Below, in pieces: positions 1,460-56,041 of a DNA stretch of 64,000 nt. The position numbers and the translations under genes were made by a program. Source of the DNA: an uncultured Clostridia bacterium (lineage in GTDB: Bacteria > Bacillota > Clostridia > Christensenellales > CAG-917); assembly GCA_934233745.1 (NCBI GenBank), contig CAKQGN010000001.1:194621-258620 (forward strand), in the 5' to 3' direction. Each line of letters opens with the position of its first letter. Within the stretch, counting starts at the first letter, position 1. The notes beneath the pieces are model-generated. The model had not been told where the DNA came from. It worked only from the letters and a program-made list of their open reading frames with translations, and searched no databases.

Positions 1460-1503
1460 ATATAAAATCAATGCGACGTGGGCGCATACACGGAGAGAAA
1501 AAC

Positions 1504-16500: not shown

Positions 16501-19500
16501 AAATTTAATGGCGCTGACGAAAATATAAAACTTACGTCGCTTCCAATGACGCAAAGCGGAACTTTGAGCGATAAGGATAAAGAATCGACAAGTGAAACCA
16601 TTGAAGATGAGGCCACATATCAACTTGTCGTAAAATTGTTTTTCAAACAAGCCAAATCGTATACGATTACCGTTTTGGATAGCTCACAAAAAGCTCGCTA
16701 CACATTCAAGAAAAACGGAGGAAGCGCGAGTGCTGAAGTCAGCGATGAATTTACTGTGCTTCCTGCCGAGTTGAGGCTGGTGAGTTCTTACGCTACATCC
16801 AGCGCATATGACGGAACGTACAAAGGCAAAGAATGGTTGGTAACAGGATTCAAGTATAATGATGGTGTTCTTCAATTTGCAGAGTTTTTACCTTCGTTTA
16901 ATATAAAATATAAAAACGGAGATGTGACAACAAAAGCAATGACTGCCGATAATATGACAACAGGAGTGGACTTTAACGGGCCAAGGGTTTCAGTTGCAGG
17001 ACCATCCAACGGAAATCTGACCATTTCACTTGTCAATGCCATCAACAAAGGTGAGTACTATCTTACTTTTGGGAAAATCGCAGCGGGCAACTATACGCTT
17101 AAAATCGAAGATTATTCATTTAGCATCGTAGAAATACAAATTGAAATTTCATGCGATGATAATGGAAAAAGCAAAATATATGACGGAAACGCCAAGGATG
17201 TAAAATTCACATTCAAAGCGAGCGCACCCGCCGGTGTTACGTTTGACGGTATAAGTGAGTATAAAACCTTTATCAGCAAGTTCTTTAAGATTAACAATCA
17301 AACTATTGAAACAAACAGTTTGAAACTTGTTGATAACAAAACAATCACATTGACATTGCAAACGGAGAAAGATGCAGCAACATATAAATTTGTTTTCGGA
17401 AAGGGTGAGAAATACGACGACCACATTAAAAACTGTGCTCTTAAACCAGCAACACTTCCGACATATACATACACTATAACCAAACGTTCGATCACATTGA
17501 GCACAACGCCGACGAGCACCAAAACTTACATTTACAACACCGAGCATCAAGGGTTGAGTCAAGTCAAATTGAATGGTGAGAGTGGCGATGTGGGCATTGT
17601 CTCAGGCGACACCGTCATGGTTAAGGTGAGCGTTCCGGGTGGGGATCCCTCGTCGAAGACTCTGTCGTTTGACAATCAAACGCTTGAGGTAACGGCAGGC
17701 ATTTCGACTATCGACGCAAACCAATATGTCGCATCTTTCGATTTGGATGACGCATCGAGCAAAAAGAACTACACGTTGAGTGCAACAAACGTGTCTTGGA
17801 AGATAGACAAATACAAAATAATGATTGGTGAGTTTGAGATTGGGGCTGAAAAAACATACAACGCACAAGCAGAAGTGCCAAAAATCAATGTCACCAACAG
17901 CGAAGTATCGGTTAGCGGAAACACGTTTACATATGGTACAGATACCTTTACTCTTGAGTATGCTGTTTCTTACAATAACCAAACCTATGCGAGCAACAAT
18001 CTTGTCAATGCAGGCACCTACAAGATTAAAATAGGCACCTCAAATGGAAAGATACATGCCAAGCATAGCGACGGGAATGATGCGTCAAACAACTATGAGT
18101 TTGGAAATAGCTCAACAGAACATCAATACGTGATCAATCCTTGCGAGATAAAAATCGGTTGGGAAAAGAAAACATTTGTGTATAATGCAAGTAATTGGAA
18201 ACTAAATGTTGCAAGTATCGAAATCAACAACAAGACCAAGACGGTTACAAACAATAGAGTTCAAACCGGTTTGGGCAACGATACTTTGACGTTCAGTCGT
18301 GGTGGCGGCGGAACAGACGTGGGAAGTTATACAACAAATGTAACGTCGCATAGTGTCAGTGTCAGTGTAGAACCAAACCACGGCGTAAGGCCTATTGCAG
18401 GCAACTATAAGATTGTATCTGGTGCCACAAGCGACAAGTTTTCCATCACGCCGTCCAAACTGAAGATTTTCTATGCAGGCGGTACGACAAGCAAAGTTTA
18501 TGATGCGGGATTTGGTATATCAGGCAAGCCGTTCGTGTTTAATACTCAATCCCAAAATGGCGGCGCACACGGCACTTCGGAGTTGTTTGATATTAGCTAT
18601 GTGTACAAAGACAAAAATGTCGGCAACGACAAGGAAGTTGTGTTTACCTATGTGTTGAAGAACGGAAATGCGAACTACGAATACGTTGGTACGGGAACGG
18701 AAAGTCAAAACAAAGGACAAATCACGCCGGCACATATCAAGGTTGCGCTCGACAAGTTGCGTAGTGGAAAAGCGACAAGGACGTTTACCAACGAACCTTA
18801 TTATGGTGGAAAAGACGGCGCAAGCGGCGGCAAAAACGACGGCAAAAGCACAGTGTATCGTTCGGGTGAAGGTTTCCGCATAAGCGGCGTGTTCGGCAAC
18901 GACGACATCAAAGTTGTTGCAAAATACGCCGAGGCAGGCGACGATAGAGTGATGTTTGACAAATATGTCAACGACATTGTGAAAAATACAGACGAAACGT
19001 TTGCCAAGGCGGCGGCAGGCACGCATTTGAAGATGCTTGTGTTTGAAATGACGGGTGGTGACGCAACAAACTACACGTTCAACGTATACGATACATCTGA
19101 CAAAGCATACAGCAAAAACAATGGCGATAGCCAAACGCCGGTGAATGTTTATGACAAGGATGATGAGAAAAACAACAAAGATAAACTGTCCCAAATCAAA
19201 ATCGAAATCACCGTCAAAACGTACAAAGTTGAGTATAAAAACGCCGCTCAAAGTTATGCCAATGCAGACAATACTTACAACACAAATTGGGAAAGAGTTG
19301 GAGTATCCAACAACCCGCCAGGAGTTACAGTAACCGTTTCCAACGGCTGGATGTATGCCGACGGACAAGACCATGGTGATGATGAACAAGCCGAAAAGAA
19401 AGTCTACAAAGCGTACACAACCATTAGAGGCTCGCAAAACAGTGTCTTGTTGGGTGCAAAGATAAGCGGTATCGATGGAATGGAACTCAACTATAAGATG

Positions 19501-21093
19501 GTCAATCAGCCCATTCTTACCATCGGATACTTTGTCGTAGACAACAACGACGTGTTTGAAATCGGTTCGGCATCGAGTTTAATGATTGCATCCTACTATT
19601 GGTGGGTTGCGCAAAACGGTCAAAACCCCGACTTCAACCTGCCGCTCGTTGCAACTTCAACATGGCATAAGATTGTCAGCAACGATGATTATATGACAAA
19701 ACCGTTTGAGAAACCGAGCGATGCACCCAACGATGTTGATATGACGGGTTGGGATTGGGATATGTATTTTGCTTGGTTTGAACAACAATATAATGTCAAG
19801 ATTTTCCTCAATGAAACAGGAATTTCAAACGAGGACGGCACGTGGGGCTATTATACAACCGGCGAAGAATCGCAACAAACACAATATAAAAAGTATAGAA
19901 TGGTGCGTGATTTCAGCGGCAAATTGTCAGAGTCCGATATTGCCATACTTGAGGCGTTCTTCCCGAAAGAAAAAGGGTGGGGCGTTGGAAAAACGTATCT
20001 TGACAACTTCCTCAATACTTCAGTCGGAAGTGTGTTGACGGCAGTCGGAAGTGTGTTTAGATGGTATAATGGTAGTGTAGGACAGTTTGAGTTTGACGGC
20101 AACGGATATGTCATAGAGTATCTCAACATTATGGGCTACGACAAAGAGAATGTCGGCTTGTTTGACATCATCGGCGCAAACGGAAGTGTCAAAAATCTGC
20201 ATTTGAGAAATATCACAATCAATGCAAATCAAGGCAACGTCGGCGGTATTGCCGGAAGTATTGCCGCGGCTGAGGGTGAGGGCGATGCAACAAATGTCAC
20301 CAACGTGTCCTTCCACGGCAAGATTACCGCAACGGGCGGCACGGTCGGCGGCTTGTTCGGCACAAGCGCAAGAGCAATCAACGGCGCAATCGTCCTTGGC
20401 GAGATAAGCGCAAGCGGCGCAAACGTCGGTGGCGTTGTCGGCACTGCAAAAGCAGACTTAACCAAAGTTGTGTCAATGATGCAAATCACCGCAAGCGGCG
20501 GCACGGTTGGAGCGTTTACAAGCACTCAAAACCCAACAATCTCAGATTCTTTCCATATGCATAATGCAGTGTGGAAGAGCGGCACGGGCTTCGTAAACGT
20601 TGAAGGCAAAAACGTCGGCTACAATGATTTGATGAGCGGTTCAAACTCGCTTTATGCAAACGCCGCCTCCGATTCAGGCACATACGACGTTATCAACGAA
20701 ACGTTTGCCGACAGCGGTCAAAACGTCAATCCGCGCCAAAGCAAACGCTTGAGAGATATGGTTTCCGTGTATCTATTGATGTATTCTTTGAAAGTCAATG
20801 GCGACAAGTACACCATAAGCGCGTCAAGTTGGCTTGTCGGTTCGGCGGATGGCACAGACGCGAAACCGATTGCGATTGCCAACAAACAAAACGTATCGCT
20901 TTTGCGCGAGCTACGCTTTGCGGCGTTTGTGCTAAAAGCCAACGTGAGCATTGACATTGCAAGCACGTTTGGCGGCTCGTTCTATGGCAGCGTGACAAGT
21001 GAGAACGGCAAAGACTATAAGATAACTTGCAACAAGCAGATGTTCGAGGTATACGCAACCACACCTCCGGCGTGGCTTGAAGTAAAACCTTAA
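1504..21093 (+). CDS. Giant (about 6,529 aa) N-terminally anchored surface protein with GLUG-motif beta-helix repeats alternating with MBG/Ig-like repeats
   Basis: One uninterrupted ORF (track 1471..21093). The ATG at 1504 has a GGAGAG RBS. The N-terminus has a basic stretch plus one hydrophobic helix (LTAGALLLAITFVLVFAGTLSGAFG). Dozens of G-G-[ILV]-[VA]-G units occur about every 20-30 aa (VGGIVG, VGGLVG, AGGIAG), matching the GLUG motif and a parallel beta-helix. Six modules each open with a G-x-x-x-P-[YF]-x-I type segment at about nt 2326, 4486, 7396, 10186, 12388 and 19552. Between them, especially 15450-19540, are 90-110-aa repeats with junctions of the form (A/G)NY..I.P..I.I...K.Y(D/N)(G/A), which are MBG-like. 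No LPXTG, SLH or other C-terminal anchor is visible. Confidence 0.9.
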   Translation: MRNSRTKTQTKLRNYIKLTAGALLLAITFVLVFAGTLSGAFGIENELQQNGIIENNVASATGTTKTVTYNASDTTFTATPNKKWKNDLTKQSIVTSYPSKHQQKWKKLFEDFVGDTTYDGCHGYYDRDTYTENATVALNKTEITQFLSSGIGESDDLYYTVSATATIKMGAWQDGSATITQKVSAWVSDNATHNSNTQGELFSHQQSKKEEAWKHILSLESNIFKTKPTTSTLYFGVHYEHKNNASGTAFGANTYDFMLVESFEITITKYSGYSGGDGTPASPYILAKRADFDDLSVNVASGSTYSGKYFIVQPDTTIEGQNATTIAMGDTYFTPIGNSTTKFAGTLLGNGCTINGLVTSGQHSGLFGYVNNARIDSLTVNVSNDSDSTSVGGLVGVVNGTTTITNCNVTGSVKGTHQIGGFVGFAQDCVLTISNGTNSATITTTSQSSNDKGRTSGGGIVGYVNANATVTINDVTNTGEVKTTSGNANSGLGGIVGFANGGTNINNCHNTASITGRAGLGGIVGYTANGSIVGCRNDGNITSSKPYNLGAGEASYSGGIAGYCYADVAKCYNSGTVKTTSDWGNSNIVGGIAAYLGSGRNVKYCYNGGWIEGSDYVGGIVGRRDGTVSYSYQAGKIKGLYNKTSTIGHITGNDTSSKISTCWTLPGASNLTTVTNTFNHNGYTVSSEANVAMKPAFGNAVLESWEEITDTGATSDTFSEITGIDQFVFYPNNNEHKIENNQYLFVYATDANAVALVPNHIDSGVSVITDTTTASVAKTVPFVSRFYFNASSDKNLVASISPIDAPLTSTQTVYNGSGQKVTTDVVGADVQEKSYYFTSGNDNALAKNKVIDAGEYDIVTEVTMKVGENTYVVVGRQVHETKWTIKTRPISFWNKIYYYGETPTSAPVPQSMSGDKGLLNGHTFICTHADELTYDFMYGAIPNAQKEVTINMTGEIRDAAGNDVTYNYDFQNGTFTISMREGNFGVKGTTDIVNNPWGSQGNPFVIKTAQHLVNLSKIVNGETPTNADTSQIVNSIFDNTTYTHVVSNNTIRYQNCYFVIVNDLDMNGSGFAPIGKDATYFFEGNISGVKSIEDTLQQNRFISNLTVNLASTDNVGLFGYVLKKGTEKPYIKHIVLNNSCSFVGKSNVGSIVGWAQDAVIQNCINNATVEGKGENAGGIVGKNFGTETSNCENHGTVKGVKNVGGIAGTLDWGVISNVQNSATVEASGENCGGIVGYMISYSTLKNVTNNAQVNGGNKTGGALGYYEKKATYSVQPIYGLTNNNSVEGLSNVGGIIGCVAGDLVFDGNNESQKCTMSGGSVKGTFNVGGLVGGVEDGSTVTLTNFTNNAKVIGGYVVGGLVGLLRGSIKNSVNNADITSEYNKAGTPSGLSIGAYVGGLVGVAYGAISHCYNSGNISASGDNSDFLGGIVGYTNANVAYCTSLENSIISGSNQVGGIVGKASGNNVKIEYCYFGGKINGLWNDNRAKLDFICGEIIDGLVSNSWKLPNAQNGDTGNRTYTNAGNALTIATGMTFKPYFVQEGSEHDTEWEQIVSKNIVGFSVSGNVPTNSYFNSDNGNDTAYVKPDKTNGFAANSTSGNVTAWYGADFGSDVRCSIVEIQVDTTPDEYNGEKQGLTREDVYMPSANNGVYEVQFAYKGNKYGDVIPEDVDMYNTTVTVKIDEKVVGVRTGVQYEITKKKVTITNIWTWKYVNGSNADFYKFEYNKDIQGMLSITVDGVLENSHYTLTQTENKAAVGKYSSSVVISDRDYEVEIVSKYCTIQNNNANLETDNAKYGIKTTQTNANTSNSQTTYTYNWEIVPFDLAADFNKNNVWFGGTKNLIVGNQGIANVEGDTTKSFYPLQVGKKGTGVQQVLVYAQHNYAASSFVVYVKYNNGNVFPLTRDTEYTVGTLENNVFGTFNVNVVSQAKPVEDTNVTARGTGNFSGDITKYYTAMFSDFGGNVTGANWGSAGNPYVISKPEHLLRLSQIVNGGTAWNSIITTNNALCISPQGTAVATDRAYSGAYFLVTADIDMTGNISTDGVYNFLPIGHRNEQSQTDMPFSGTFDGNGKKIKFVYNVNRNNFYNNNKAHSDYVGLFGYIAGYKVDAEQKYATIKNLSIESMDGNEVDDNGGIIGKDYVGGIAGYAVDSKLYNVSMMYGSWVRGENYVGGIVGYGENTWLEVGNEHDNAITYANVGGIQYVGGIVGKWIVSSEEQIGGGKDKQEYITTTLGTDVNGTQYVGGLVGWLDTSTCTDSVVFAPIVKGSDQNKNVVKGTEYVGALFGVVVGNGYHQSATQGKYTAIVISDQKVNNITLQTNTSAKVVGGLVGYAESVGILFETDWNTSSTTFTLDDSTSFFGGVVGVLGKNSTIEAIIVTKEGDGSYLTGSEHTILNNTALGASGKPIGSFVGGIVGYVSSQAGTYWEANTTIFGNGISLVNSGQIHATGYAGGIFGALGDLSTSVAQTFENDTNSILYNVLTKGVRSGNANTTLGIAPTVDSAYFIGAKGKLVNSASLSVTDGYVGGIAGYSGAKVRFVLRNTPQTGAIATANLNVYSGGNDIYINGSYAGGIAGYLSFGLDHELQYVVVQAKFASQDATRVGGLVGYMGSGKVERCVVTSPDGTISANTDNYQGTEYVGGLVGETQSAIIRNSVSTGFNLEQTSNTKGGLLGYGANPTIDSSWTFYIAKSGATYSTVSKNTYGKYILVDTDIVTTDIVTTDKSSYPTFAKLCEFTGIAKNGTAGMLEFAINVPTQRQLAFYNASGSDVETSNKDSFKGFENRNNVLTIKLDMASGTSMQICVVDIEFVNVPQHGTDNDEAAHAVVESTYKKPSNSTRYHVDVTQANFDIANTKQVTHIKANIYFDYDGDGHYISIGDGNVEPNNRIGGEYDSEEIIPGSSAENPLTISSQEEWNDFAWSIYTGANDYAGQYVKLLASKIVINTGENKNGKHKGTKFNYDYDFTSVSTPNKSQEDTKNANSNMGYNLAGNISQGSSEVEKVTVDGVQGATTPSFKGHFDGNGNTIEITYTSGGYHRISVFPNAAGATFKHLTIKGTIQAASQADGKGNEENDKKDIVSKTAAYDIAGFVGKPFGTLKFYNCKNEADIIGLRNVGGIVGYNAGGQSITLEACVNTGDITSLQGSYTLGGKNSDTYNYDDGLDGTGVGETNVGYTFGTGGIIGSYIGNIQIESCRNSGKIIGGHNVGGIIGLHNGKQESFATLTINNCANTGDILANSGYWGEDQGGAKDNPSRGVRQSIFGYAGGLVGKTSRYSSLKMFASYNMGTVITYSNIVGGLVGAVGALSKTSKNTGTDTLLTGSKSVIAYCYNNGTVHSGGTYPKQVKERLSGRENYGGTISGGIAGIVGNIKISNCYNTGDIIAWGVVGYSGSWQLRSGGIVGQSEPTGDTYVVEFETLYNAGSIMAKAKNTHVGVEWIGIAYYMNEKLRYGGAISGYCDHSEITSRITSYNVYSIKYPVGTKILKKDINSANKYKESDYAETDFHEQRRGDYLADGGVAGIGASQEGLTVSGTTFDSYEQLTARLNARDDVVPRATEYTGNNKINIIQSIETLTEGIDYTQPKIDGKMYDGWIYVYGCLPQLAMFALDTQNGLSMHSVGYRKDQYGEYNATGESAGSDQYPYIIKDGIDLMGMQALVDNGFDFNGKIIEFANSTNNLSGVCSETIVFPTTSSTSTNLKDSNAYKAKDSKGNYHEGKSYHLFAKGALCNQGWSDDKGNVNSVAQEYGTWIENNYRNLGESKNTTLNLQNFIAIGRKGNSFKGTINGQQGTAEASFATIIDSLRVTIKGYKNTHAGLFSTIENAIVQYVGVGGNSQVFSHEKVGTTVVATAGGIVGMVYGNSVVENCIVKGSTVVGAYGSNAYAGGIAGMADPKQGNTYNAGITTTIRNCSISSSGRIESAKSNIGGVLGYVGGDAGANEKGNSVRIEGCEVQKAAIQAASSATESSHIGGVLGYGSDYVAAFITGCSVGNGADTVTIKGEHSLGGIAGGMSNAKGGYIDSCTVGANTTIERINQGGGTVSENPKHGTAIGGLVGFTEDSTDTTSPLTTTFSGTSAFNGTITVSVEASYQSSTLDAKISCIGGIVGDMGSGANFASGSNVTVDGTINITLAAANVGGVAGRTNTATFIGNFVVKPNMQTDKAENVGGFIGKNVGTVYILADTTERIVNDKLNGTDITIGGTIRGTSEVGGFIGVNNSGSSLNIGSNVANAKPYRSGTLSITIENGTITGGDNVGGIVGKNEGADGGASYASIDIVKGTITQRGTIQGANYVGGIIGLNDGLLTTGGGEADTSIGGTTLDENQIGLIKNLSITNNGNVTGSGNYVGGVVGKLDSPAEDSGKGAIAGTFTNSGTVVGNNFVGGSLGFVGKNVTITAKNNVATLFVNDGEVNATGYFVGGSIGALVGKILGENSSVAVKFENKKKVNATGFVGGSIGVLAGPVSYAQFVNSSDGLEIAAVNSVGGSVGYIGVPSLLSYELIGFTAHQIDINNTHFEASGTLKANPSQDAINAAKEDKEDNGWGGVGGAIGVMGAAINSWTDNTYYANGNVSANVIENGIETGIYNVGGIVGLINAGNITISNMLAYRTTVTGGKNVGGIVGATTGAKTVINSAYAIEGTFSGTENVGGIIGLAKDDTDASTSYWVKGYANSDIATYDVKDLSKLGFTTGKATTGWFFLYANDATGANGLGTINTSHSTNSDLQYWKRIADAYTASERQTKIKDETGVEYTLATIPLKSDIVKDKDINGTDTKSPQKSTLYATATAAEVTEKGYYMYTATSNNDVKPSVIYDNGVYYISVKTNVINAEDEKVQAQNVAVFYRSVSSSKEALIYNGYLRNAIIGLDGVYLYENPIGDNETPTINGYKGQYIFTATTTIKNADGSTSEVNEAQSDPNTYSSVIKIYYVDDNGTARLVGGNTELAWKITERELAVAFEHTTNRTYGTGTEDNTTDMTVTIDNIAPKRGVTVPIRIVVSYGAQEDSRVIFTWDGTKFNGADENIKLTSLPMTQSGTLSDKDKESTSETIEDEATYQLVVKLFFKQAKSYTITVLDSSQKARYTFKKNGGSASAEVSDEFTVLPAELRLVSSYATSSAYDGTYKGKEWLVTGFKYNDGVLQFAEFLPSFNIKYKNGDVTTKAMTADNMTTGVDFNGPRVSVAGPSNGNLTISLVNAINKGEYYLTFGKIAAGNYTLKIEDYSFSIVEIQIEISCDDNGKSKIYDGNAKDVKFTFKASAPAGVTFDGISEYKTFISKFFKINNQTIETNSLKLVDNKTITLTLQTEKDAATYKFVFGKGEKYDDHIKNCALKPATLPTYTYTITKRSITLSTTPTSTKTYIYNTEHQGLSQVKLNGESGDVGIVSGDTVMVKVSVPGGDPSSKTLSFDNQTLEVTAGISTIDANQYVASFDLDDASSKKNYTLSATNVSWKIDKYKIMIGEFEIGAEKTYNAQAEVPKINVTNSEVSVSGNTFTYGTDTFTLEYAVSYNNQTYASNNLVNAGTYKIKIGTSNGKIHAKHSDGNDASNNYEFGNSSTEHQYVINPCEIKIGWEKKTFVYNASNWKLNVASIEINNKTKTVTNNRVQTGLGNDTLTFSRGGGGTDVGSYTTNVTSHSVSVSVEPNHGVRPIAGNYKIVSGATSDKFSITPSKLKIFYAGGTTSKVYDAGFGISGKPFVFNTQSQNGGAHGTSELFDISYVYKDKNVGNDKEVVFTYVLKNGNANYEYVGTGTESQNKGQITPAHIKVALDKLRSGKATRTFTNEPYYGGKDGASGGKNDGKSTVYRSGEGFRISGVFGNDDIKVVAKYAEAGDDRVMFDKYVNDIVKNTDETFAKAAAGTHLKMLVFEMTGGDATNYTFNVYDTSDKAYSKNNGDSQTPVNVYDKDDEKNNKDKLSQIKIEITVKTYKVEYKNAAQSYANADNTYNTNWERVGVSNNPPGVTVTVSNGWMYADGQDHGDDEQAEKKVYKAYTTIRGSQNSVLLGAKISGIDGMELNYKMVNQPILTIGYFVVDNNDVFEIGSASSLMIASYYWWVAQNGQNPDFNLPLVATSTWHKIVSNDDYMTKPFEKPSDAPNDVDMTGWDWDMYFAWFEQQYNVKIFLNETGISNEDGTWGYYTTGEESQQTQYKKYRMVRDFSGKLSESDIAILEAFFPKEKGWGVGKTYLDNFLNTSVGSVLTAVGSVFRWYNGSVGQFEFDGNGYVIEYLNIMGYDKENVGLFDIIGANGSVKNLHLRNITINANQGNVGGIAGSIAAAEGEGDATNVTNVSFHGKITATGGTVGGLFGTSARAINGAIVLGEISASGANVGGVVGTAKADLTKVVSMMQITASGGTVGAFTSTQNPTISDSFHMHNAVWKSGTGFVNVEGKNVGYNDLMSGSNSLYANAASDSGTYDVINETFADSGQNVNPRQSKRLRDMVSVYLLMYSLKVNGDKYTISASSWLVGSADGTDAKPIAIANKQNVSLLRELRFAAFVLKANVSIDIASTFGGSFYGSVTSENGKDYKITCNKQMFEVYATTPPAWLEVKP
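9628..9660 (+). repeat. In-frame 15-bp perfect tandem duplication (GACATTGTAACCACC x2.2) inside the giant gene
   Basis: gacattgtaaccacc gacattgtaaccacc gac encodes DIVTT-DIVTT-D. Confidence 0.95.
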
Positions 21094-24192: not shown

Positions 24193-24268
24193 TGGAGCTG
24201 ATGACCAGACTTGAACTGGTGACCTCATCCTTACCAAGGATGTGCTCTACCACCTGAGCCACATCAGC
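24193..24268 (-). tRNA. tRNA-Thr (anticodon GGT)
   Basis: The reverse complement GCTGATGTGGCTCAGGTGGTAGAGCACATCCTTGGTAAGGATGAGGTCACCAGTTCAAGTCTGGTCATCAGCTCCA folds as a cloverleaf. The acceptor is GCTGATG/CATCAGC, the anticodon loop is TTGGTAA, the T-loop is TTCAAGT, and CCA is encoded. Confidence 0.92.
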
Positions 24269-24275
24269 ATATTGT

Positions 24276-24364
24276 TGGCGGAAGCGGAGGGATTCGAACC
24301 CCCGTGGGCTTGCACCCAAACGGTTTTCAAGACCGCCTCGTTATGACCGCTTCGATACGCTTCC
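24276..24364 (-). tRNA. tRNA-Ser (anticodon TGA), class II with a long variable arm
   Basis: The reverse complement is GGAAGCGTATCGAAGCGGTCATAACGAGGCGGTCTTGAAAACCGTTTGGGTGCAAGCCCACGGGGGTTCGAATCCCTCCGCTTCCGCCA. The acceptor is GGAAGCG/CGCTTCC, the anticodon loop is CTTGAAA, the variable arm is 17 nt, and the T-loop is TTCGAAT. Confidence 0.92.
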
Positions 24365-26963: not shown

Positions 26964-27476
26964 ATGGGAAAAAGCAGCAGTAATAGTATGAAGGAATTGT
27001 GTATCGAGATATCTGAGAATTCGGTTGGCTTGGAAGTCGAATACGACAGCCTAAAAAAAGCATATGACGAGGAACTCCCGATTGTATATGAAAGAGGGTT
27101 GGCGGAAGAATTTTTGCTTGCTCAAAAGGTGGCGGATGTTATAAGGAATATTTGTCCGTTTCTCGAGTTTATCGGTCTTGCAGCAAGCAGTATGGTCGCA
27201 TATTTGCTCTATATAACCGACATAAATCCCGACAAGTACAAATTGAATTTCAAAGACGTTATAGATGCGCCCTGCAACGGGTATATGTGGGGATATCATT
27301 TTAGCAAAGAAAATTTGTATGAAGTTTTCAAAGAGTTGAAAAAACATTTTCAACATGTCGAGTTGAGTGCAAACGACGATTGTTTGACGGTGAACGGTCT
27401 TAAAATATTTGTTGAAACGTCTTTTGAAAGAATCCGCACCATCGGTTTGTGTACGGAACATTGTTTACCGTTTTAA
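26964..27476 (+). CDS. Small protein resembling a catalytically dead fragment of the DNA polymerase III alpha (DnaE) palm domain
   Basis: The RBS is AGGAGGTG. The segment AEEFLLAQKVADVIRNICPFLEFIGLAASSMVAYLLYITDINPDKYKLNFKDVIDAPCNGYMWGYHFSKENLYEVFKELKKHF aligns by eye with the DnaE segment GYFLIV....[46 protein letters not shown]....R..VI.YV...YG. The catalytic PD[IF]D[TV]DF aspartates are replaced by GYMWGYHF. Confidence 0.5.
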   Translation: MGKSSSNSMKELCIEISENSVGLEVEYDSLKKAYDEELPIVYERGLAEEFLLAQKVADVIRNICPFLEFIGLAASSMVAYLLYITDINPDKYKLNFKDVIDAPCNGYMWGYHFSKENLYEVFKELKKHFQHVELSANDDCLTVNGLKIFVETSFERIRTIGLCTEHCLPF

Positions 27477-27491
27477 AGGAGAGTAAATGAT

Positions 27492-28856
27492 ATGGATGCA
27501 TTTGATAAAATTGCAGGTTACGAGAAACAAAAGAAAAATTTGCGCTATATAAGCGATATGTGGAAAAACCCCGAAGAATACAAGCGTCTCGGCGTCAGAA
27601 TTCCCAAAGGAGTGATGTTGGACGGCGACCCGGGAAACGGAAAAACGCTTATGGCTCAATGCCTCATCGAAGCAACCGAATGTGCGTATGAAAAATGCAC
27701 GAAAGACAGGGCGCAGGATGAATTCATCGTCCATTTGAAAGAGGTGTTTAAGAGGGCGGAAGATTATGTGAAAAGCAACAACAAACCGTTTATAATCTTT
27801 TTGGACGATATGGATAAATTTGCCGAAACGTCAAAAGATACTGACAATCCCGAAGAATATGCGATCCTTCAAACGTTTATAGATTCAATCAAGGATTTTG
27901 ACGTGTTTTTTGTCGCTACCGTAAACAGTTGCGCTGCTTTTCCAAAGTCGCTTATCAGAAGCGGAAGAATTGACAAAACATTTGTTATTCTCAAACCGTC
28001 AATATCGGATTCCGAAAAAGTCGCGGATTACTATTTGCAAAATCAAAACGTCAATATAAAAGGCGTGTCGGGTCGCTATATCACACAAATGACGGAAGGC
28101 GTTTCATGTGCAGAACTCGAATCGATTATCAATGAGGCAGGTATGTATGCCGCTTTCGAACGAAGCGATTGCATAACGAAGAAACACATCGATTGGGCGA
28201 TTATGTGCATCAAATTCAAGATAAATGTTGCGGGAAAATTGGAACGAACGTATGATAAAAACAATCCGAATTGCCGCGAGTTTGCGTATCACGAAGCAGG
28301 GCACGCAGCGGTTGCGCTGTTGAGCGAAAACTTTATTCCGACAATTCTGTTCACCGATGATTTAAAGAAAAACTGTTCGTTTTGCTATTCGCATAATAAA
28401 AACAAGGGGTCTCAATACAACAATTCAATCGAAAGAGTGTTTATCGATTTCGGCGGGAAAGCGGGGGCGAGTATAGGGTTTGGTCCGCTGACATTGGGGT
28501 GCAATCTGGATTTGCGTGAGGCGTGGAAAAATTTGTATTGGAATGTTTCGAAAGACTGCGTCGAAGACTTGCATATGTTCAATCCGATCGACAATCGAGA
28601 TTCCTTGCAAGGTGAATTGTTTAAAGACAGATTGGACACAACGACCGAAAAAATGAGCAACGCTTACAATTTCGTCGTGGAGTTGTTGAATCTAAACAGA
28701 GCCTTGTTAGACGCGCTTGCCGACCGTCTTATGGAAAAGTATTTTATAACCGTCGACGAGATTTCCGAAATCTTTGAGGAATATAAAAGCAATCATAAAG
28801 TCGTTACGATTCGCGATTTGATGGCAACTCGTTCGCAAACGCTTGCCTCGGCATAA
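27492..28856 (+). CDS. Soluble (no TM) FtsH-like AAA+ ATPase fused to an M41-type zinc metalloprotease domain
   Basis: The RBS is AAAGGAGAG. Walker A is GDPGNGKT. Walker B is IIFLDDMD, with DD in place of DE. The second region of homology is ATVNSCAAFPKSLIRSGRIDK. The zinc site is AYHEAGHAAV (HEXXH), with GCNLDLREA corresponding to FtsH GASNDI. No N-terminal TM helices are present, unlike canonical FtsH. Confidence 0.75.
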   Translation: MDAFDKIAGYEKQKKNLRYISDMWKNPEEYKRLGVRIPKGVMLDGDPGNGKTLMAQCLIEATECAYEKCTKDRAQDEFIVHLKEVFKRAEDYVKSNNKPFIIFLDDMDKFAETSKDTDNPEEYAILQTFIDSIKDFDVFFVATVNSCAAFPKSLIRSGRIDKTFVILKPSISDSEKVADYYLQNQNVNIKGVSGRYITQMTEGVSCAELESIINEAGMYAAFERSDCITKKHIDWAIMCIKFKINVAGKLERTYDKNNPNCREFAYHEAGHAAVALLSENFIPTILFTDDLKKNCSFCYSHNKNKGSQYNNSIERVFIDFGGKAGASIGFGPLTLGCNLDLREAWKNLYWNVSKDCVEDLHMFNPIDNRDSLQGELFKDRLDTTTEKMSNAYNFVVELLNLNRALLDALADRLMEKYFITVDEISEIFEEYKSNHKVVTIRDLMATRSQTLASA

Positions 28857-39736: not shown

Positions 39737-40825
39737 ATGTATAGAAAACGCATTATTTTGATACTCACTTCACGCGACGAAAACGACGGAATCTCGCAAA
39801 AAATTGCAGAGGCTATCCGCAAAATCGGCACGCATAACGTGGTTGTGATGAGCGACGACAAGTACGGCTCGGCAGCCAAACTTTCCGCGCTCGACAAACT
39901 TATGGACAGCGGAAGCGAATATCAGTATTTGCTTGAAAAGAAAGACAAAGGCGTGCTGCGCGACATATTTAAGCTCAAAAGTTTTTCAAAACGCGTCAAT
40001 CGCATAAACAACATGATAAAGCGTTTTCATCCCGAGTATATTTTGTGCGTTACACCGTATGCTCATCATTGCGCCGTCGAGGCAAAACGCAGAGCTAAAT
40101 TTCGCACGCAGATAATATACATGCTCCAAACGTTCACTCTTCCAAAAAGAGTGCATGATGACGCAACCAATGTGTTTATCGTCGAAAATGCGGATGTAAA
40201 AGCCGATTTGGTGCGACAAGGCATAAAATCAAAGGATGTTATGGTGATGGGCTTGCCCTTTGAAATCACACCGAAAACGCGTCAGGAAATTGTGCTGAAA
40301 AAGCAGGAACTCGGACTTCCGAAAGTCAAGACGGTTTATGTAAACATTCAAGAAAAAAAACAACTCGAAAGCGTGTTTTCGCTCCTTCTCGACCAAGGCG
40401 AGATAGCAAATCTGGCAGTTTACGTCAACGACGCGCATATGCTTGAAACGCTCTCGTCACTGTCAGTAAAAGCACCCGAAACAAAGGTTATATTTTTGCA
40501 ATCGCCCGAGCAAGCCGACGACTGTTTGCCCGTTTGCGACGTAGCAATTACGCTTTACGATCCGGCAACGCTTTATAAGTGTTTCAAACTCGGTGTGCCG
40601 TCCGTTGTCGTAAAGGAAGGAGAACACGAGCAATCGGACATATCCTATCTTGCTCAGAACGAGCTTTGCCTTGTTGCAAAAACCGATTTGGAAATCGTGG
40701 GATTGCTGTATAGAGTTTTGCAAACGGACGCAGGGGAGCGAATTGCCGCAAACGGCAAAAAGTGGGTGGAGTTCAGCTCGCTTGAAAATATCGCAAACTT
40801 CCTCACGGCGTATATCGCGGTGTGA
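39737..40825 (+). CDS. Putative GT28/MGDG-synthase-like (UgtP-like) glycosyltransferase
   Basis: The layout resembles diacylglycerol glycosyltransferases, for example IILILTS...GISQKIAEAI, HPEYILCVTPYA and VENADVKADLVRQGI. This rests on motif recall only. Confidence 0.4.
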   Translation: MYRKRIILILTSRDENDGISQKIAEAIRKIGTHNVVVMSDDKYGSAAKLSALDKLMDSGSEYQYLLEKKDKGVLRDIFKLKSFSKRVNRINNMIKRFHPEYILCVTPYAHHCAVEAKRRAKFRTQIIYMLQTFTLPKRVHDDATNVFIVENADVKADLVRQGIKSKDVMVMGLPFEITPKTRQEIVLKKQELGLPKVKTVYVNIQEKKQLESVFSLLLDQGEIANLAVYVNDAHMLETLSSLSVKAPETKVIFLQSPEQADDCLPVCDVAITLYDPATLYKCFKLGVPSVVVKEGEHEQSDISYLAQNELCLVAKTDLEIVGLLYRVLQTDAGERIAANGKKWVEFSSLENIANFLTAYIAV

Positions 40826-40859
40826 GCGTGCGCATAAGGGAGGTGCGTCTTTTGCGCAA

Positions 40860-41085
40860 GTGATATTGCACTTCGTGCGGTGATATCACTGCGTGATGGT
40901 ATCGTGCTTTGCACGGTGATATCGCACTTTGTGCGATGATATCAAAACACTGTTTGGATTGCGGAATATTGCACTTGCGTGCGTGATATTGTCGTCGCTG
41001 ACGACAGTGATATTGCAACTTTGTTGCAGTTGTGGAAAACTAAATAATATCGCCTGCGGCGGTGATATTTGCTCAAACGGAGCCT
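40860..41085 (+). repeat. Array of about 10 short variable hairpins separated by a conserved (G)TGATAT(C) linker
   Basis: The units read GTGATAT plus a hairpin: GCAC-TTC-GTGC, ATCAC-TGC-GTGAT, GTGC-TTT-GCAC, GCAC-TTT-GTGC, GCAC-TTGC-GTGC, TGTCGTC-GCT-GACGACA, TGCAAC-TTT-GTTGCA, CGCC-TGC-GGCG and GCTC-AAACG-GAGC. The period is about 22-24 nt. Confidence 0.8.
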
Positions 41086-41110
41086 AGGTTATGGCAACCT
41101 CCCAAACGGT

Positions 41111-41211
41111 GTCATTGCGAGGAGCAACAACGTTGCGACGTGGCAATCCCCTAAATAGAAACGAAAACACAGTGGCAATTGCCATTCACCACGCTTGTTC
41201 TCGCAATGATA
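41111..41211. mobile_element. MITE-like element of about 100 bp bounded by inverted TCATTGCGAG repeats
   Basis: The left end, GTCATTGCGAGGAGCAACAACGTTGCGACGTGGCAATC, is nearly identical to 785-823. The right end, CTTGTTCTCGCAATGA, is the reverse complement of TCATTGCGAGAACAAG. There is an internal palindrome, TGGCAATTGCCA. It has no coding capacity. Confidence 0.5.
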
Positions 41212-41251
41212 AAGATAAGACAGTGACAACGATAACAAAACAGGTTGAGAT

Positions 41252-42526
41252 ATGCCAAAGATTGTAAAATTGAACGAAATTGCAAAAAGACAAGGGTTTA
41301 AGCTCGGTGACGATGTTATACGTATCGGCGGATACAAAATGGTTGACGAGTTGGACTATCTCTACTACGACAACGAAAAGAAGTTTTCGGTGGATATTGT
41401 GCGTGACGGAAAAGAACACACCGTAAAAGTCCACAAAAAAGAAGGGCAGTCGCTCGGATTGGAATTTGCAATCGACATGAAGCCCGTGGTTTGCAAAAAC
41501 AAGTGCATTTTCTGCTTTGTCGATCAACTTCCCAAGAATATGCGCCCCAGTCTTTACGTCAAAGACGACGATTATCGATACAGCTTTATGTGCGGGTCGT
41601 ATGTCACCATGACAAATGTCACCGAAGAAGAAATCGAAAGAGTAATCAGGCTCAAACTCAGTCCGCTGTACATCTCCGTGCATGCGTGGGACGACGATAT
41701 AAGAACGTATATCCTCAAAAACCCGAATACGAGAAAACTGCCCGAGCAAATGCGCAGACTCGGCGCAAACGGCATAAAAATGCACACTCAACTTGTTGTC
41801 GTTCCGGATGTCAACGACGGCAAAGTGCTTGAAGACAGCATAAGGGGGTTGCATACCGTCGAAGGAGTCGAAACGGTTGCGGTTGTTCCTGTCGGCATGA
41901 CGGGACACAGGGAACAACTTGCCAAACTCAAAGCCGTTGACGAACAGAACGCAAGAGATACCATAAAACTCGTCGAGAGTTTGAACGAGGAGTTTGGCGG
42001 AAACTTCTGCTGGTGTAGTGACGAATACTATGTCAAGGCAAACGCAGACGTGCCGCCCTGCTCATATTACGGTGCTTTCGACCAAATCGAAAACGGCGTG
42101 GGACTCATTGCCGACTGGAAAGACAATTTTCAATACAGCCTGCAAGAAGCTGGAAAGGCGAATCTCGGCAAGAGAATTGACATGATAACGGGCGTGTCGT
42201 TTGCGCCTATGCTCAAAAAGTATTCCGAAATGCTTGCCGACAATCTCGGTTTGCATGTCGAAGTGCATGCGATAATCAACAACTTTTTCGGCACGAGCGT
42301 TACGGTTGCGGGGCTTGTGACGGCAGGGGACATGATTGAGCAGTTGCAAGGCGTAAAGACGGACGCTTTTGTGATTCCCGACAATATGTTGCGTGAGTTT
42401 ACCGACACCTTCCTTGACAACAAAACCGTCAAAGAAGTCGAAGATGCGCTGGGCGCGCCGTTTATCGTAGTGTCGCACTCAGGAAGCGATACCGCACAAA
42501 AAATAATCGAGTTTTTCCAAAAGTGA
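41252..42526 (+). CDS. PDZ/radical-SAM-like DUF512 protein
   Basis: The protein has an N-terminal PDZ-like segment, the CX3CX2C motif VVCKNKCIFCFVDQL, and KDDDYRYSFMCGSYVTMTN. Its position just upstream of der is typical of Clostridia. Confidence 0.8.
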   Translation: MPKIVKLNEIAKRQGFKLGDDVIRIGGYKMVDELDYLYYDNEKKFSVDIVRDGKEHTVKVHKKEGQSLGLEFAIDMKPVVCKNKCIFCFVDQLPKNMRPSLYVKDDDYRYSFMCGSYVTMTNVTEEEIERVIRLKLSPLYISVHAWDDDIRTYILKNPNTRKLPEQMRRLGANGIKMHTQLVVVPDVNDGKVLEDSIRGLHTVEGVETVAVVPVGMTGHREQLAKLKAVDEQNARDTIKLVESLNEEFGGNFCWCSDEYYVKANADVPPCSYYGAFDQIENGVGLIADWKDNFQYSLQEAGKANLGKRIDMITGVSFAPMLKKYSEMLADNLGLHVEVHAIINNFFGTSVTVAGLVTAGDMIEQLQGVKTDAFVIPDNMLREFTDTFLDNKTVKEVEDALGAPFIVVSHSGSDTAQKIIEFFQK

Positions 42527-42601: not shown

Positions 42602-43918
42602 ATGAAACCATTGGTGGCAATTGTAGGAAGACCGAATGTCGGAAAATCGACATTGTTCAATCGGCTCGCGGGACAAAGAATATCCATTGTCGAAAATACG
42701 CCGGGCGTTACTCGTGACAGAGTTTATGCCGATTGCGAGTGGTGCGGAAGGGCGTTTACGCTCATAGATACCGGCGGTCTGGAACTGAAAAGCGACGACG
42801 TGATGTGGAATCACATTCGCACTCAAGTGGAAATCGCAGTTGATACTGCGGACGCTATCCTTTACGTCGTAGACGGCAAAACGGGACTTACCACCGACGA
42901 CAACCTCGTGTGTTCGTTTTTGAGAAAGTCCAAATTGCCCGTCATACTTGCGGTCAACAAAATCGACAACAACGATATGAGCAATGTTTACGACTTTTAC
43001 GCACTGGGATTCGGCGAGCCTCATGCAGTGAGCGCAGAACAGGGCAAAGGGCTTGGAGATTTGCTCGACGCGATACTCGAAGATATCCCCGAATATTCCT
43101 TGGACGAAGATCCCGATCGAATCAAAATCGCAATCGTCGGAAAACCGAACGCAGGCAAAAGCTCGATTACAAACAGACTCCTCGGTTATGACCGCTGTAT
43201 CGTGAGCGACATCGCAGGCACGACAAGGGACGCAATCGACACCGAACTCGATGTCGGCGATGACAAATACCTCATCATCGACACCGCAGGTATGCGCAAA
43301 AAGAAGGTGGTGAGCGAGGACTTGGAAAGATACTCGGTCATGCGCAGTCTGCTTGCCGTAAGGCGCGCGGACGTTGTGCTTGTTGTGTGCGACGCAACGG
43401 AAGGACTCACCGAACAGGACGTCAAAATCGCAGGGTTCGTACACGAGGAGGGCAAACCGTCCATCATCGTTATGAACAAGTGGGATCTGGTTGACAAAAA
43501 TACTCACACGATTTACGAGTTTGAAAAAAAGCTCAAAGAAGATTTGAAATTTATGGATTACTTCAAATCCGTGTATATATCGGCGTTGAGCGGCAAAAGA
43601 CTTGACAATTTGCTTCCGCTTTGCAAGGAAGTTGTGGCAAATTCGAAAAAGCGTATTCCCACGGGACTTCTCAACGAGGTGGTCGGGGACGCTATCCGAA
43701 TAAGCGAGCCGCCGTCTTATCTCGGGAAAAAGCTCAAAATTTTCTATGTGACGCAAGTGTCCGTCGCACCGCCGACTTTTGTGCTTAAAGTCAACGATCC
43801 GACGATTATGCATTTCAGTTATAAGAGATATCTCGAAAACGCGCTCCGAAAGAGTTTCGATTTTTCGGGTACGCCGATTCGCTTGCTGATAAGAGGAAAT
43901 AACGAAAGCGATCAATAA
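42602..43918 (+). CDS. der: Ribosome-associated GTPase Der (EngA), double GTPase domain
   Basis: The two G1 motifs are MKPLVAIVGRPNVGKSTLFNRL and KIAIVGKPNAGKSSITNRL. A KH-like C-terminus is present. Confidence 0.92.
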   Translation: MKPLVAIVGRPNVGKSTLFNRLAGQRISIVENTPGVTRDRVYADCEWCGRAFTLIDTGGLELKSDDVMWNHIRTQVEIAVDTADAILYVVDGKTGLTTDDNLVCSFLRKSKLPVILAVNKIDNNDMSNVYDFYALGFGEPHAVSAEQGKGLGDLLDAILEDIPEYSLDEDPDRIKIAIVGKPNAGKSSITNRLLGYDRCIVSDIAGTTRDAIDTELDVGDDKYLIIDTAGMRKKKVVSEDLERYSVMRSLLAVRRADVVLVVCDATEGLTEQDVKIAGFVHEEGKPSIIVMNKWDLVDKNTHTIYEFEKKLKEDLKFMDYFKSVYISALSGKRLDNLLPLCKEVVANSKKRIPTGLLNEVVGDAIRISEPPSYLGKKLKIFYVTQVSVAPPTFVLKVNDPTIMHFSYKRYLENALRKSFDFSGTPIRLLIRGNNESDQ

Positions 43919-52857: not shown

Positions 52858-53271
52858 TTACTTTTTGATTGCCTGCGACATAGCGGTTGCCATTTGCGTC
52901 GCTTGCTCCTGAAGACGATCTTGCTCGTACAATTCCATTTGTGCGAAAATCGCTTTTTTGAATTCCTCAGGCTTTTTAATGCCGTAAAATACGACGGGAG
53001 AAGAACCGGCAGTTTCGATTTTCAATCCGCCGTAGCCGAATATCTTTCCGAATAAGCCACTGGCAACGGTCACGTTTTGAATTTTGTTCAAAGGACTTGT
53101 GATCGTGTGGGTGCGAATCAGACCTTTTTTACCGACAATTCTTTTGTTGGTTATAGCCAATTCTGAGGTCAAAAAACTGATAAAGTGCGGAAAAACCGCA
53201 AGGAACGACTTTTTAGCTTTGCGGATGACTTTTTCGTTTTTCGTTAAATTTTGTTCTGCATAGTTACCCAT
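52858..53271 (-). CDS. Bacterial PH-domain (bPH_2/YdbS-YdbT-like) membrane protein
   Basis: The motif pattern SELAITNKRIVGKKGLIRTHTITSPLNKIQNVTVASGLFGKIFGYGGLKIETAG fits the family. Confidence 0.65.
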   Translation of the reverse strand: MGNYAEQNLTKNEKVIRKAKKSFLAVFPHFISFLTSELAITNKRIVGKKGLIRTHTITSPLNKIQNVTVASGLFGKIFGYGGLKIETAGSSPVVFYGIKKPEEFKKAIFAQMELYEQDRLQEQATQMATAMSQAIKK

Positions 53272-53306: not shown

Positions 53307-53351
53307 AATGTAAGAATTCTTAAATGTCAAGAATAAATGTAAGAATTCTTA
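53307..53351. promoter_or_regulatory. Two identical 16-bp sites, AATGTAAGAATTCTTA, each containing the perfect palindrome TAAGAATTCTTA; a likely operator pair
   Basis: The copies are at 53307-53322 and 53336-53351, 29 bp centre to centre. They lie between the divergent PH-domain gene and the XRE regulator gene. Confidence 0.6.
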
Positions 53352-53365
53352 TATGCTAAAAATCT

Positions 53366-55691: not shown

Positions 55692-55807
55692 CGGGTGTGG
55701 GTGTCCCGCCCGCAACTGCAACGAAGTTGCAATATCACTTGCGCAAAGCGCAAATATCACTGTTGCCAAAGGCAACAATATCACGCACGCTTTGCGTGCA
55801 TATCACT
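55692..55807 (-). repeat. Second GTGATAT-linker hairpin array (inverted orientation) plus a GGGACACCCACACCCG box
   Basis: The minus strand reads GTGATAT-GCACGC-AAA-GCGTGC, GTGATAT-TGTTGCC-TTT-GGCAACA, GTGATAT-TTGCGC-TTT-GCGCAA and GTGATAT-TGCAAC-TTC-GTTGCA-GTTGCGGGC-GGGACACCCACACCCG. The last unit nearly matches 41007-41035. Confidence 0.8.
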
Positions 55808-56041
55808 TACATTGTCGTTGCCGCAACGCCGTTCGAGCAACTTTGTTATACTCTCTTAAACAGAGGATAGTCAAGCGAAAAAGAGGAAATAAAAGTTAAA
55901 GAAAGATTAAAAATTGTGGCAAAACGTCGTCAAAACCACAAAATATAGTTTTTATTTGACAACGGTTTGAGTTATTGATAAAATAAACTGGTAATTGTGT
56001 GCGTATATTCTAAAAATAAATCACGCGCGCAAGGAGAGAAT

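Follow-up and report, generated by a model that had tools for sequence, protein, structure and literature searches.

Hairpin arrays assigned to the orphan Gut-1 motif in a Clostridia genome may be REP-like, dispersed and fast-evolving palindromic repeats

Repetitive extragenic palindromic sequences and bacterial interspersed mosaic elements (REP/BIME), which go with RAYT transposases in Enterobacteria, Pseudomonas and Stenotrophomonas (SMAG), are built from units of 20-40 nt, each a palindrome with a short conserved flank. The units are extragenic, in many cases situated 3' of a gene or within an operon, either singly, in inverted pairs or in strain-variable tandem arrays, and they are passively transcribed and form hairpin barriers. 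CRISPR arrays combine constant, often palindromic repeats of 23-55 nt with non-palindromic spacers of 26-72 nt and have cas genes adjacent. The attC site is a single imperfect hairpin of 57-141 nt that contains R and L boxes as well as extrahelical bases and is used, in an IntI-dependent manner, as strand-selective folded single-stranded DNA. Here we compare with these systems two arrays of short, variable hairpins from a 64,000-nucleotide stretch of an uncultured Clostridia bacterium (Christensenellales, CAG-917; GenBank assembly GCA_934233745.1, contig CAKQGN010000001.1, positions 194,621 to 258,620), hereafter called the window, whose own numbering is used throughout. Array 1 lies at 40860-41085 (+) upstream of the DUF512-der operon, and array 2 at 55710-55806 (-) upstream of a Na+/H+ exchanger gene. 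By sequence and predicted fold, both are members of an already catalogued orphan motif, Gut-1 (Rfam RF01706), and our leading interpretation, which we hold with about as much belief as doubt, is that array 1 is a Gut-1 family cluster representing a REP/BIME-like, dispersed and fast-evolving palindromic repeat, with no role as a gene-specific regulator.

Gut-1 was described by Weinberg et al. (2010, Genome Biol 11:R31, PMC2864571) as a probable non-coding RNA of unknown function, on the basis of 43 representatives that all came from human-gut metagenomic reads and from no sequenced organism; it was rated 'RNA: Y' because of its covariation, and Rfam gives the type of RF01706 as 'Gene; sRNA', that is, a small RNA. 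The published alignment already contains GUGAUAU linkers and upstream terminators, forward arrays followed by reverse arrays, and tandem copies about 240 nt apart (PMC2864571). In an Rfam scan of the window, RF01706 matched array 2 (55727-55808, minus strand) with 54.1 bits, the gathering score being 50. At relaxed thresholds, units 1-3 of array 1 (40858-40927) gave 45.7 bits (E 8e-8), which is under the gathering score, and 40943-41018 gave a weaker match of 16.7 bits, while ten of ten further array loci tested against the model matched it. The placing of array 1 in Gut-1 thus rests on the architecture common to the family and on a terminal unit that it shares with array 2. Like the Rfam family, the window arrays consist of three or more short hairpins spaced by GUGAAAU or GUGAUAU, and consecutive hairpins, the GUGAAAU-type linker and covarying stems are all found; the Rfam model, however, comprises three hairpins, whereas array 1 has eight plus two units, the first three of which alone account for the 45.7 bits. 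In the Rfam model the AU that ends one linker pairs with the GU that opens the next, and in the GUGAUAU variant the minimum free energy (MFE) fold extends this linker pairing to U.G, A-U and U.G. The assertion of the original prediction that the array represents no described repeat class is therefore superseded (PMC2864571), yet the published small RNA and the arrays seen here differ in one respect, as the latter occur in many Clostridia metagenome-assembled genomes (MAGs), where they are insertions that vary between strains and have stems with the statistics of DNA. A literature search on the linker strings and on 'Gut-1 RNA' returned nothing useful besides Weinberg 2010.

Reading of the sequence at 40500-41500 bore out variable self-complementary stems alternating with a constant linker of about 7 nt, the central claim of the original prediction, and the same pattern holds across the family, where 257 of 362 spacers between exact linkers carry an end-anchored stem of at least 4 bp as against 14 of 362 after shuffling (121 sources; 301 of the 362 spacers are unique). 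In array 1, about ten units follow one another head to tail, each composed of the linker GTGATAT and a short variable palindrome. All of the stems listed by the original prediction are there, and its count of about ten units stands, but its linker conserved in every unit does not, because only 6 of 10 linkers are exact while the other four are degenerate, with one or two mismatches (ATGGTAT, ATGATAT, GGAATAT, TAATAT); the unit length, 16-27 nt with most units at 20-24 nt, is likewise wider than the proposed period of 22-24 nt. The block of units 1-7 (40860-41006, plus strand) has palindromes of 3-7 bp and loops of 3-4 nt, namely TGCAC-TTC-GTGCG after GTGATAT (40860), CAC-TGC-GTG after GTGATAT (40880), CGTGC-TTT-GCACG after ATGGTAT (40896), CGCAC-TTT-GTGCG after GTGATAT (40916), an imperfect hairpin after ATGATAT (40936), TGCAC-TTGC-GTGC after GGAATAT (40963) and TGTCGTC-GCT-GACGACA after GTGATAT (40983). 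Unit 8 (GTGATAT TGCAAC-TTT-GTTGCA, from 41007) is followed by the degenerate terminal linker GTTGTGG, the two forming the conserved array end (41007-41035, plus strand). Since a GTTGTGG-like linker terminates arrays of this family elsewhere, units 9 (TAATAT CGCC-TGC-GGCG, from 41045) and 10 (GTGATAT (T)GCTC-AAACG-GAGC, from 41062) are trailing units, 3' of the array end (41045-41085, plus strand). 

The shuffle control that the original prediction had proposed put linker recurrence beyond what chance would give, the window having 25 copies of GTGATAT as against 6.55 +/- 2.7 in shuffled sequence, where 25 was reached in 0 of 100 shuffles. Eleven of the 25 matches lie inside the arrays, seven at 40860-41068, one of which is a reverse-strand match on the GTGATATCAC palindrome, and four at 55732-55806. 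Compared with dinucleotide shuffles, the folding z-scores of 40858-41085 were -3.06 (RNA, plus strand), -4.11 (RNA, minus strand) and -4.27 (DNA, minus strand). The second locus implied by the original prediction is real, array 2 having four GTGATAT units with the stems GCACGC, TGTTGCC, TTGCGC and TGCAAC, terminating in GTTGCGG and giving a clean row of hairpins as its MFE fold. Its last unit is nearly identical to unit 8 of array 1, and array 2 as a whole lies 88 nt 5' of the exchanger gene, which is on the minus strand and starts at 55622.

Both REP/BIME and Gut-1 arrays consist of a palindrome with a short conserved flank and are extragenic and strain-variable. However, REP stems are conserved within a genome while in a Gut-1 array the stem changes from one unit to the next, the flank is GTAG in REP and GTGAWAT in Gut-1, and the RAYT (Y1 HUH) gene that accompanies REP was found neither within 2.5 kb of the Gut-1 arrays at 89 loci nor in the window. 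As the tests for conserved stems and GTAG fail and no RAYT was found, we say that the family works like REP/BIME, not that it is REP/BIME. The likeness to CRISPR lies solely in the regular alternation of constant and variable parts. TIGR (tandem interspaced guide RNA) arrays have 36-nt units with two alternating repeats of 8-12 nt and two non-complementary 9-nt spacers, which may also sit in hairpin loops, next to a gene for the Nop-domain protein Tas; a stem-loop array subtype exists, and some arrays come from gut metagenomes (Faure et al. 2025, PMC12045711). Gut-1 arrays share with TIGR a short period and little overall sequence conservation, but unlike TIGR they have units of 16-27 nt, one constant 7-mer, complementary arms and loops of 3-4 nt. 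We therefore rejected a CRISPR- or TIGR-like guide array on unit size, complementary variable arms and the lack of associated genes, and the inverse-CRISPR likeness invoked by the original prediction falls with it, the units being 16-27 nt with 4-8 bp palindromes and no cas-like or Tas-like gene adjoining. Like attC, Gut-1 arrays keep structure while sequence varies, and composite forms of the family, described below, flank accessory genes as attC sites flank cassettes; unlike attC, they line up minihairpins one after another, joined by a constant linker, and have no integrase. A ToxI-like repeat of a type III toxin-antitoxin system, that is, near-identical units of about 34-36 nt 5' of a ToxN/AbiQ toxin gene, is at odds with the variable 16-27 nt units, and the genes downstream of the window arrays are DUF512/der and the Na+/H+ exchanger. 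Pfam scans of the window open reading frames (ORFs) found ordinary chromosomal genes and no transposase, HUH, Nop or PF05635 gene, and no Nop-type gene recurred next to the arrays at the 89 loci.

The array at the DUF512 junction proved to be a recent arrival. Array 1 begins 34 nt past the stop codon (40823-40825) of a co-oriented MGDG_synth-like glycosyltransferase gene (39737-40825, plus strand; Pfam), and a pre-array hairpin, TGCG-TCTTTTG-CGCA (40844-40858, plus strand), begins 19 nt past that codon; downstream and in the same orientation follow the DUF512/radical-SAM-like gene (41252-42526) and the der/EngA GTPase gene (42602-43918; both plus strand, Pfam and NCBIfam). Orthologous glycosyltransferase/DUF512 junctions were gathered by a metagenome search with the DUF512 protein; these and other compared loci are cited by L numbers, their ORFs were called mechanically and MAG taxonomy may be wrong. 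Unit number, which the original prediction had suggested comparing between strains, does differ: locus L125, at 98.1-98.7% nucleotide identity to the window, is without 131 nt (window 40874-41004), and the deletion junction falls in a direct repeat, GTGATATTGCA, common to units 1 and 8. L125 keeps unit 8 as its sole unit, together with the tail, including trailing units 9-10 with GTGATTT in place of GTGATAT; in its pre-array hairpin (TGCGC-ATAGG-GCGCA, given as 30 nt) the stem is kept and the loop replaced. In nine loci of a sister species at about 86.5% nucleotide identity (L126-L132, L148, L149), a different array of 5-6 units fills the spacer, beginning 2 nt past the stop codon and ending 25 nt short of the DUF512 ATG. 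L146 belongs to the same species group, L135 and L143 to a group one step further away (89% amino-acid identity); all three have no array and a terminator-like hairpin alone. Other lineages have unrelated inserts at the junction, and relatives at 58-84% amino-acid identity have about 10-30 nt between the two genes. By this comparison the ancestral junction is best reconstructed as a spacer of about 10-30 nt with no array. The array being absent, truncated or replaced in relatives, it is a recent, variable insertion inside an operon and no conserved leader; an operon-specific leader or riboswitch, and with it the leader of the DUF512-der operon implied by the original prediction, was rejected on the same grounds.

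The sister-species DUF512 array aligns better with array 2 than with array 1: unit 1 of array 2 is identical to one of its units (e.g. in L130), and the stem TGCAAC/GTTGCA becomes TGCACC/GGTGCA. Arrays at unrelated loci are thus paralogous. Moreover, short-read (Logan) contigs whose encoded proteins are identical to the window's stop at both arrays, L122-L124 83-115 nt before DUF512 and L325 96 nt 5' of the Na+/H+ exchanger gene, from which we conclude that the arrays break assemblies. Taken on sequence evidence, these comparisons show arrays sitting as insertions in intergenic gaps, here within the glycosyltransferase-like/DUF512-der operon, and unit blocks gained or lost, seemingly by recombination or slippage between the repeated linker and first stem bases.

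The family extends well beyond the two window loci, as the genome-wide pattern search suggested by the original prediction made clear. The pattern GTGAWAT-N13-19-GTGAWAT-N13-19-GTGAWAT, searched in one genome per species, matched at least 120 loci, and our family counts rest on the matches listed: 89 of the 120 listed loci have the same architecture, with 117 true hairpin arrays, and the remaining loci are unrelated tandem repeats. Nearly all of these arrays are carried by Clostridia MAGs of gut or rumen origin (Oscillospiraceae, Acutalibacteraceae, Ruminococcaceae, Christensenellaceae, "Eubacteriales"). Clean GTGAAAT hairpin arrays were also seen in two Akkermansia/Akkermansiaceae MAGs (L004, L009) and one Bacteroidaceae MAG (L002), so that either the element has spread horizontally or contigs were mis-binned. 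Like hairpin arrays with variant linkers, CATCAT (ATGATG on the other strand) at about 4150-4700 on the reverse strand of L007 and ATATCAT 5' of DUF512 in L136, indicate that the family is wider than GTGAWAT. Only 4 of 120 listed matches to the same pattern in viral contigs were true hairpin arrays, and blastn of array 1 against plasmid and phage collections gave no match, so a phage or plasmid element was rejected. Solo arrays have an upstream gene that is co-oriented (32) or on the opposite strand (17) and a downstream gene that is convergent (22) or co-oriented (12); many arrays begin directly after a terminator T-run, and 12 of 117 start within 150 nt (mostly 32-65 nt) downstream of a co-oriented tRNA gene. 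Such surroundings are typical of REP-like repeats. The terminal linker has the consensus GT-K-N-N-R-G (49 arrays).

A composite element of about 170-250 bp is common, consisting of a bidirectional terminator, an array A, the reverse complement of the start of A, and an array B. Array A opens with AACGAAAT-X or GTTATAT-X, has 3-4 units and closes with GT-K-N-N-R-G; the reverse complement of its start gives an 11-bp long-range pairing, with four different X sequences that are all complementary; and array B, also of 3-4 units, lies on the opposite strand, so that A and B form a convergent pair. Both window arrays end in GTTG(T/C)GG as array A does, yet without the composite form. One array B unit, an imperfect palindrome kept across species (ATCTCACTTCGTTCGAT in L025, L040, L083 and L098; CGTTCGCTTCGCTCACG in L074, L211 and L288), differs in this from all other units, and its conservation hints at a sequence-specific role at that position. 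Where loci of different genomes resemble one another, they do so in the composite alone (79-93% identity over 130-200 bp). Judged as a miniature inverted-repeat transposable element, it is dispersed, with unrelated flanks and the 11-bp internal inverted repeat, and no target-site duplication was found at the copy ends in L083. Three contigs each carry two composite copies that are 95-98% identical and in direct orientation. The pairs, in a cassette-like layout, are found in L083 (4259-4469 and 4974-5184), where both copies begin right after a CCA, L044 (171-417 and 2910-3156) and L103 (2277-2442 and 4995-5160). The segments between the paired copies are small and accessory, carrying a BspA-type LRR_5 gene, RhuM with a dCTP deaminase, or a phosphatase with a pyrophosphatase-like gene and a methyltransferase. 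Pairing of forward with reverse linkers in composites into a ladder of four-way junctions was considered and dropped, since the W position does not covary in L096 and L288.

On our REP/BIME-like interpretation, the arrays would spread and be renewed at the DNA level. A trans-acting enzyme that recognises the hairpin and linker on single-stranded DNA could spread them, and intrastrand template switching, alone or besides such an enzyme, could keep the arms identical. Array 1 would be transcribed within the operon mRNA, where, by analogy with REP elements, the row of hairpins would act generically, as a barrier to 3'-5' exonucleases that also, between the upstream gene and DUF512-der, works as an insulator or partial terminator, and not as a signal sensor. 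Several observations weigh against this interpretation. Clustering of the ORFs within 2.5 kb of the arrays at the 89 loci yielded no recurrent enzyme family, be it transposase, RAYT/Y1-HUH, integrase or polymerase, so that the mobilising mechanism is wholly inferred. Stem sequence is not conserved between copies, as it is in REPs, and a sequence-specific transposase model is therefore not directly transferable. No target-site duplication was seen. Among loci centred on DUF512, 463 kb in all and for the most part of distant Clostridia, arrays were found at the sister-species DUF512 site only, a density that is a lower bound because the relaxed array finder missed array 1, whose outermost pairs are T.G. 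Finally, some arrays are positionally conserved across species (L006, L089, L101 and L115 have the same downstream flank), and composites have an ordered architecture with the covarying 11-bp long-range pairing; both of these would fit a functional RNA.

Such an RNA is the main competitor, possible in our judgement though clearly the less favoured: in keeping with the Rfam entry and Weinberg et al., the arrays would be a true structured non-coding RNA, either a small RNA or an untranslated region transcribed on the GUGAWAU strand, whose hairpins, by analogy with CsrB/RsmZ or ToxI, might repeatedly display GAW/GUGAWAU and so titrate an RNA-binding protein or be cleaved into units. Beyond the Rfam matches and the published rating (PMC2864571), it draws on strong covariation of the stems. 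In 13 homologous composites both sides had changed in 24 of 28 stem pairs, there were 85 two-sided covariation cells as against about 7 one-sided G.U cells, and 86% of cells were paired, compared with 62% after shuffling and 33-48% for slid partners. It draws further on the linker ends, which lengthen the stems by A-U and U.G pairs and on this strand can do so solely as RNA, on the composite closing helix of 11 bp with its four covarying sequences, on UNAC-type tetraloops, and on the shared orientation of both window arrays with their downstream genes; moreover, the sister-species array occupies the whole intercistronic spacer and so must be co-transcribed.

The composition of the stems and the setting of the arrays point away from RNA. 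The variable stems are about 95% Watson-Crick (1176 Watson-Crick, 8 G.U-type and 18 A.C-type pairs), and internal mismatches counted by stricter rules were 7 G.U-type and 15 A.C-type (p = 0.13). With G.U at about 0.5% of variable-stem pairs, no commoner than A.C, there is no G.U excess that would indicate wobble tolerance on the GUGAWAU strand, and such an excess was dropped as evidence for RNA; judged from these alignments, the stems evolve by double, compensatory substitution almost without G.U intermediates. Triloops make up 58% of the loops, arrays occur in either orientation to flanking genes with convergent pairs using both strands, most arrays start after a terminator and not a promoter, and presence and unit content vary between strains that are 98-99% identical. 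A consensus scan found no promoter 5' of either window array on the array strand. A candidate sigma-70-like promoter, TTGACT-N18-TATAAC (55845-55874, minus strand), lies 5' of array 2; it was picked by eye only, is weak evidence, and went unreported because the scan demands T at the last -10 position.

The loops are strongly strand-specific. Read on the GTGAWAT strand, the 5' arms are 61% pyrimidine and the closing pair is 5'C-3'G in 108 of the 113 triloops and in 49 of the 63 tetraloops; triloops are T-N-C in 68 cases and G-N-A in 3 (p = 5e-17), and tetraloops are T-N-N-C in 38 cases, 19 of them UNAC-type, and G-N-N-A in none (p = 7e-12). On the complementary ATWTCAC strand the tips accordingly read C-GNA-G and C-GNNA-G, with no preference for GNRA (18) over GNYA (20). 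The DNA minihairpin d(GCGNAGC) is exceptionally stable. Compensatory arms together with strand-specific tips mean that the hairpins have their importance, or their origin, in the single-stranded state and in a strand-specific way, which upholds the view of the original prediction that the pattern calls for selection on RNA or DNA structure or for a generative mechanism. Overall, the stem and loop statistics are no less compatible with single-stranded DNA than with RNA.

Less probable again is that the arrays are sites acting as single-stranded DNA, in which the minihairpin and ATWTCAC/GTGAWAT would be nicked or recombined by an enzyme of the HUH-endonuclease or attC-integrase type, or would be made by fold-back (hairpin-primed) synthesis, the arrays being what a mobile or cassette system not yet described acts on or leaves behind. 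The perfect Watson-Crick pairing of the arms, their double transversions, the C-GNA-G and C-GNNA-G tips on the ATWTCAC strand, the near-identical composites around accessory genes, the 12 arrays just 3' of tRNA genes and the span of matches over Clostridia, Akkermansiaceae and one Bacteroidaceae MAG all accord with it. So does a PF05635 gene (23S rRNA-IVS/Avd-type four-helix bundle, about 115 aa), whose start is no more than about 100 nt from the outer end of array B at 8 of the 89 loci (L008, e.g. 4814-5170 minus strand, and L018, L021, L038, L052, L053, L074 and L096), in most of them with its own TATAAT-like promoter-like sequence abutting the array; the only other recurrent neighbour family is an ABC/MacB-like protein (ten loci), and a literature search on PF05635 returned passing mentions only. 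However, HUH, integrase and polymerase genes are not associated with the arrays at the 89 loci, each strand carries both orientations owing to the convergent pairs, the arrays lack the R-box consensus of attC, the cross-phylum matches are explicable by MAG binning, and the DNA-minihairpin argument leans on background thermodynamics. In its fullest form, a conjecture that we consider doubtful, Gut-1 arrays would be no small RNA genes but substrates or footprints of an undescribed single-stranded-DNA system that recognises or generates C-GNA-G-tipped minihairpins beside ATWTCAC, spreads composites (terminator, array A, array B) to tRNA 3' flanks and operon junctions across gut phyla and is tied to PF05635 genes and accessory-cassette exchange. 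We made no evidential use of partial motif matches: the linker partly matches the omega-protein heptad WATCACW, the Fur hexamer and the phiX174/pC194 nick site TGATAT, and terminal GTTNNGG partly matches the integron core GTTRRRY.

The least probable reading is a duplex DNA binding-site array, with GTGAWAT about every two helical turns serving as iteron, centromere-like element, operator or roadblock, for although the 7-bp element is constant (with the preceding A kept in 97 of 118 arrays), a spacing of 20-24 bp would align sites on one helix face and convergent A and B arrays look like opposed site clusters, strand-specific hairpins disfavour it, the palindromic spacers and strand-asymmetric loop tips (p ~1e-11 to 1e-17) are left unexplained, the spacing ranges over 16-27 bp within one array, and the setting is ordinary chromosome with no partition or replication genes nearby.

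For the window alone the finding is modest, and there is no evidence that array 1 regulates DUF512-der. For Gut-1, an orphan since 2010, it means a place in named lineages, including some Akkermansiaceae MAGs, and a testable reinterpretation, built on the rapid turnover of the arrays, the dispersal of composites, arms that are Watson-Crick almost throughout, the asymmetry of the tips and the association with tRNA and PF05635 genes, which shifts the priority from hunting for small RNA targets to a genome census and tests on single-stranded DNA. As the arrays break short-read assemblies and make operons of common gut bacteria differ in length from strain to strain, they are also useful as strain markers and are possibly modulators of polar expression.

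Elsewhere in the window, a single ORF of 6540 aa (1471-21093, plus strand) carries GLUG motifs (PF07581) in its first 3000 residues and has no Pfam match in the rest; its product is probably a giant surface or adhesin-like protein, and the several isolated GTGATAT matches within it appear to be due to chance. Two adjacent tRNA genes (24196-24364, minus strand; Rfam 68.3 and 53.5 bits) are, unlike many tRNA loci elsewhere, not followed by a Gut-1 array. An intergenic 29-nt tandem duplication, AATGTAAGAATTCTTAAATGCCAAAAATA (53307-53363; two copies, 85% identical), adjoins a minus-strand bPH_2 gene (52858-53271), and small genes of HTH_3 and HU-like type, called in L324, are close by. Lastly, an ORF of 170 aa (26964-27476, plus strand) with a partial match to the DNA_pol3_alpha NTPase domain alone is followed by an AAA and Peptidase_M41 (FtsH-like) ORF of 454 aa (27492-28856, plus strand), which looks short for FtsH; judged by their domain matches, the two may be fragments or a divergent pair.

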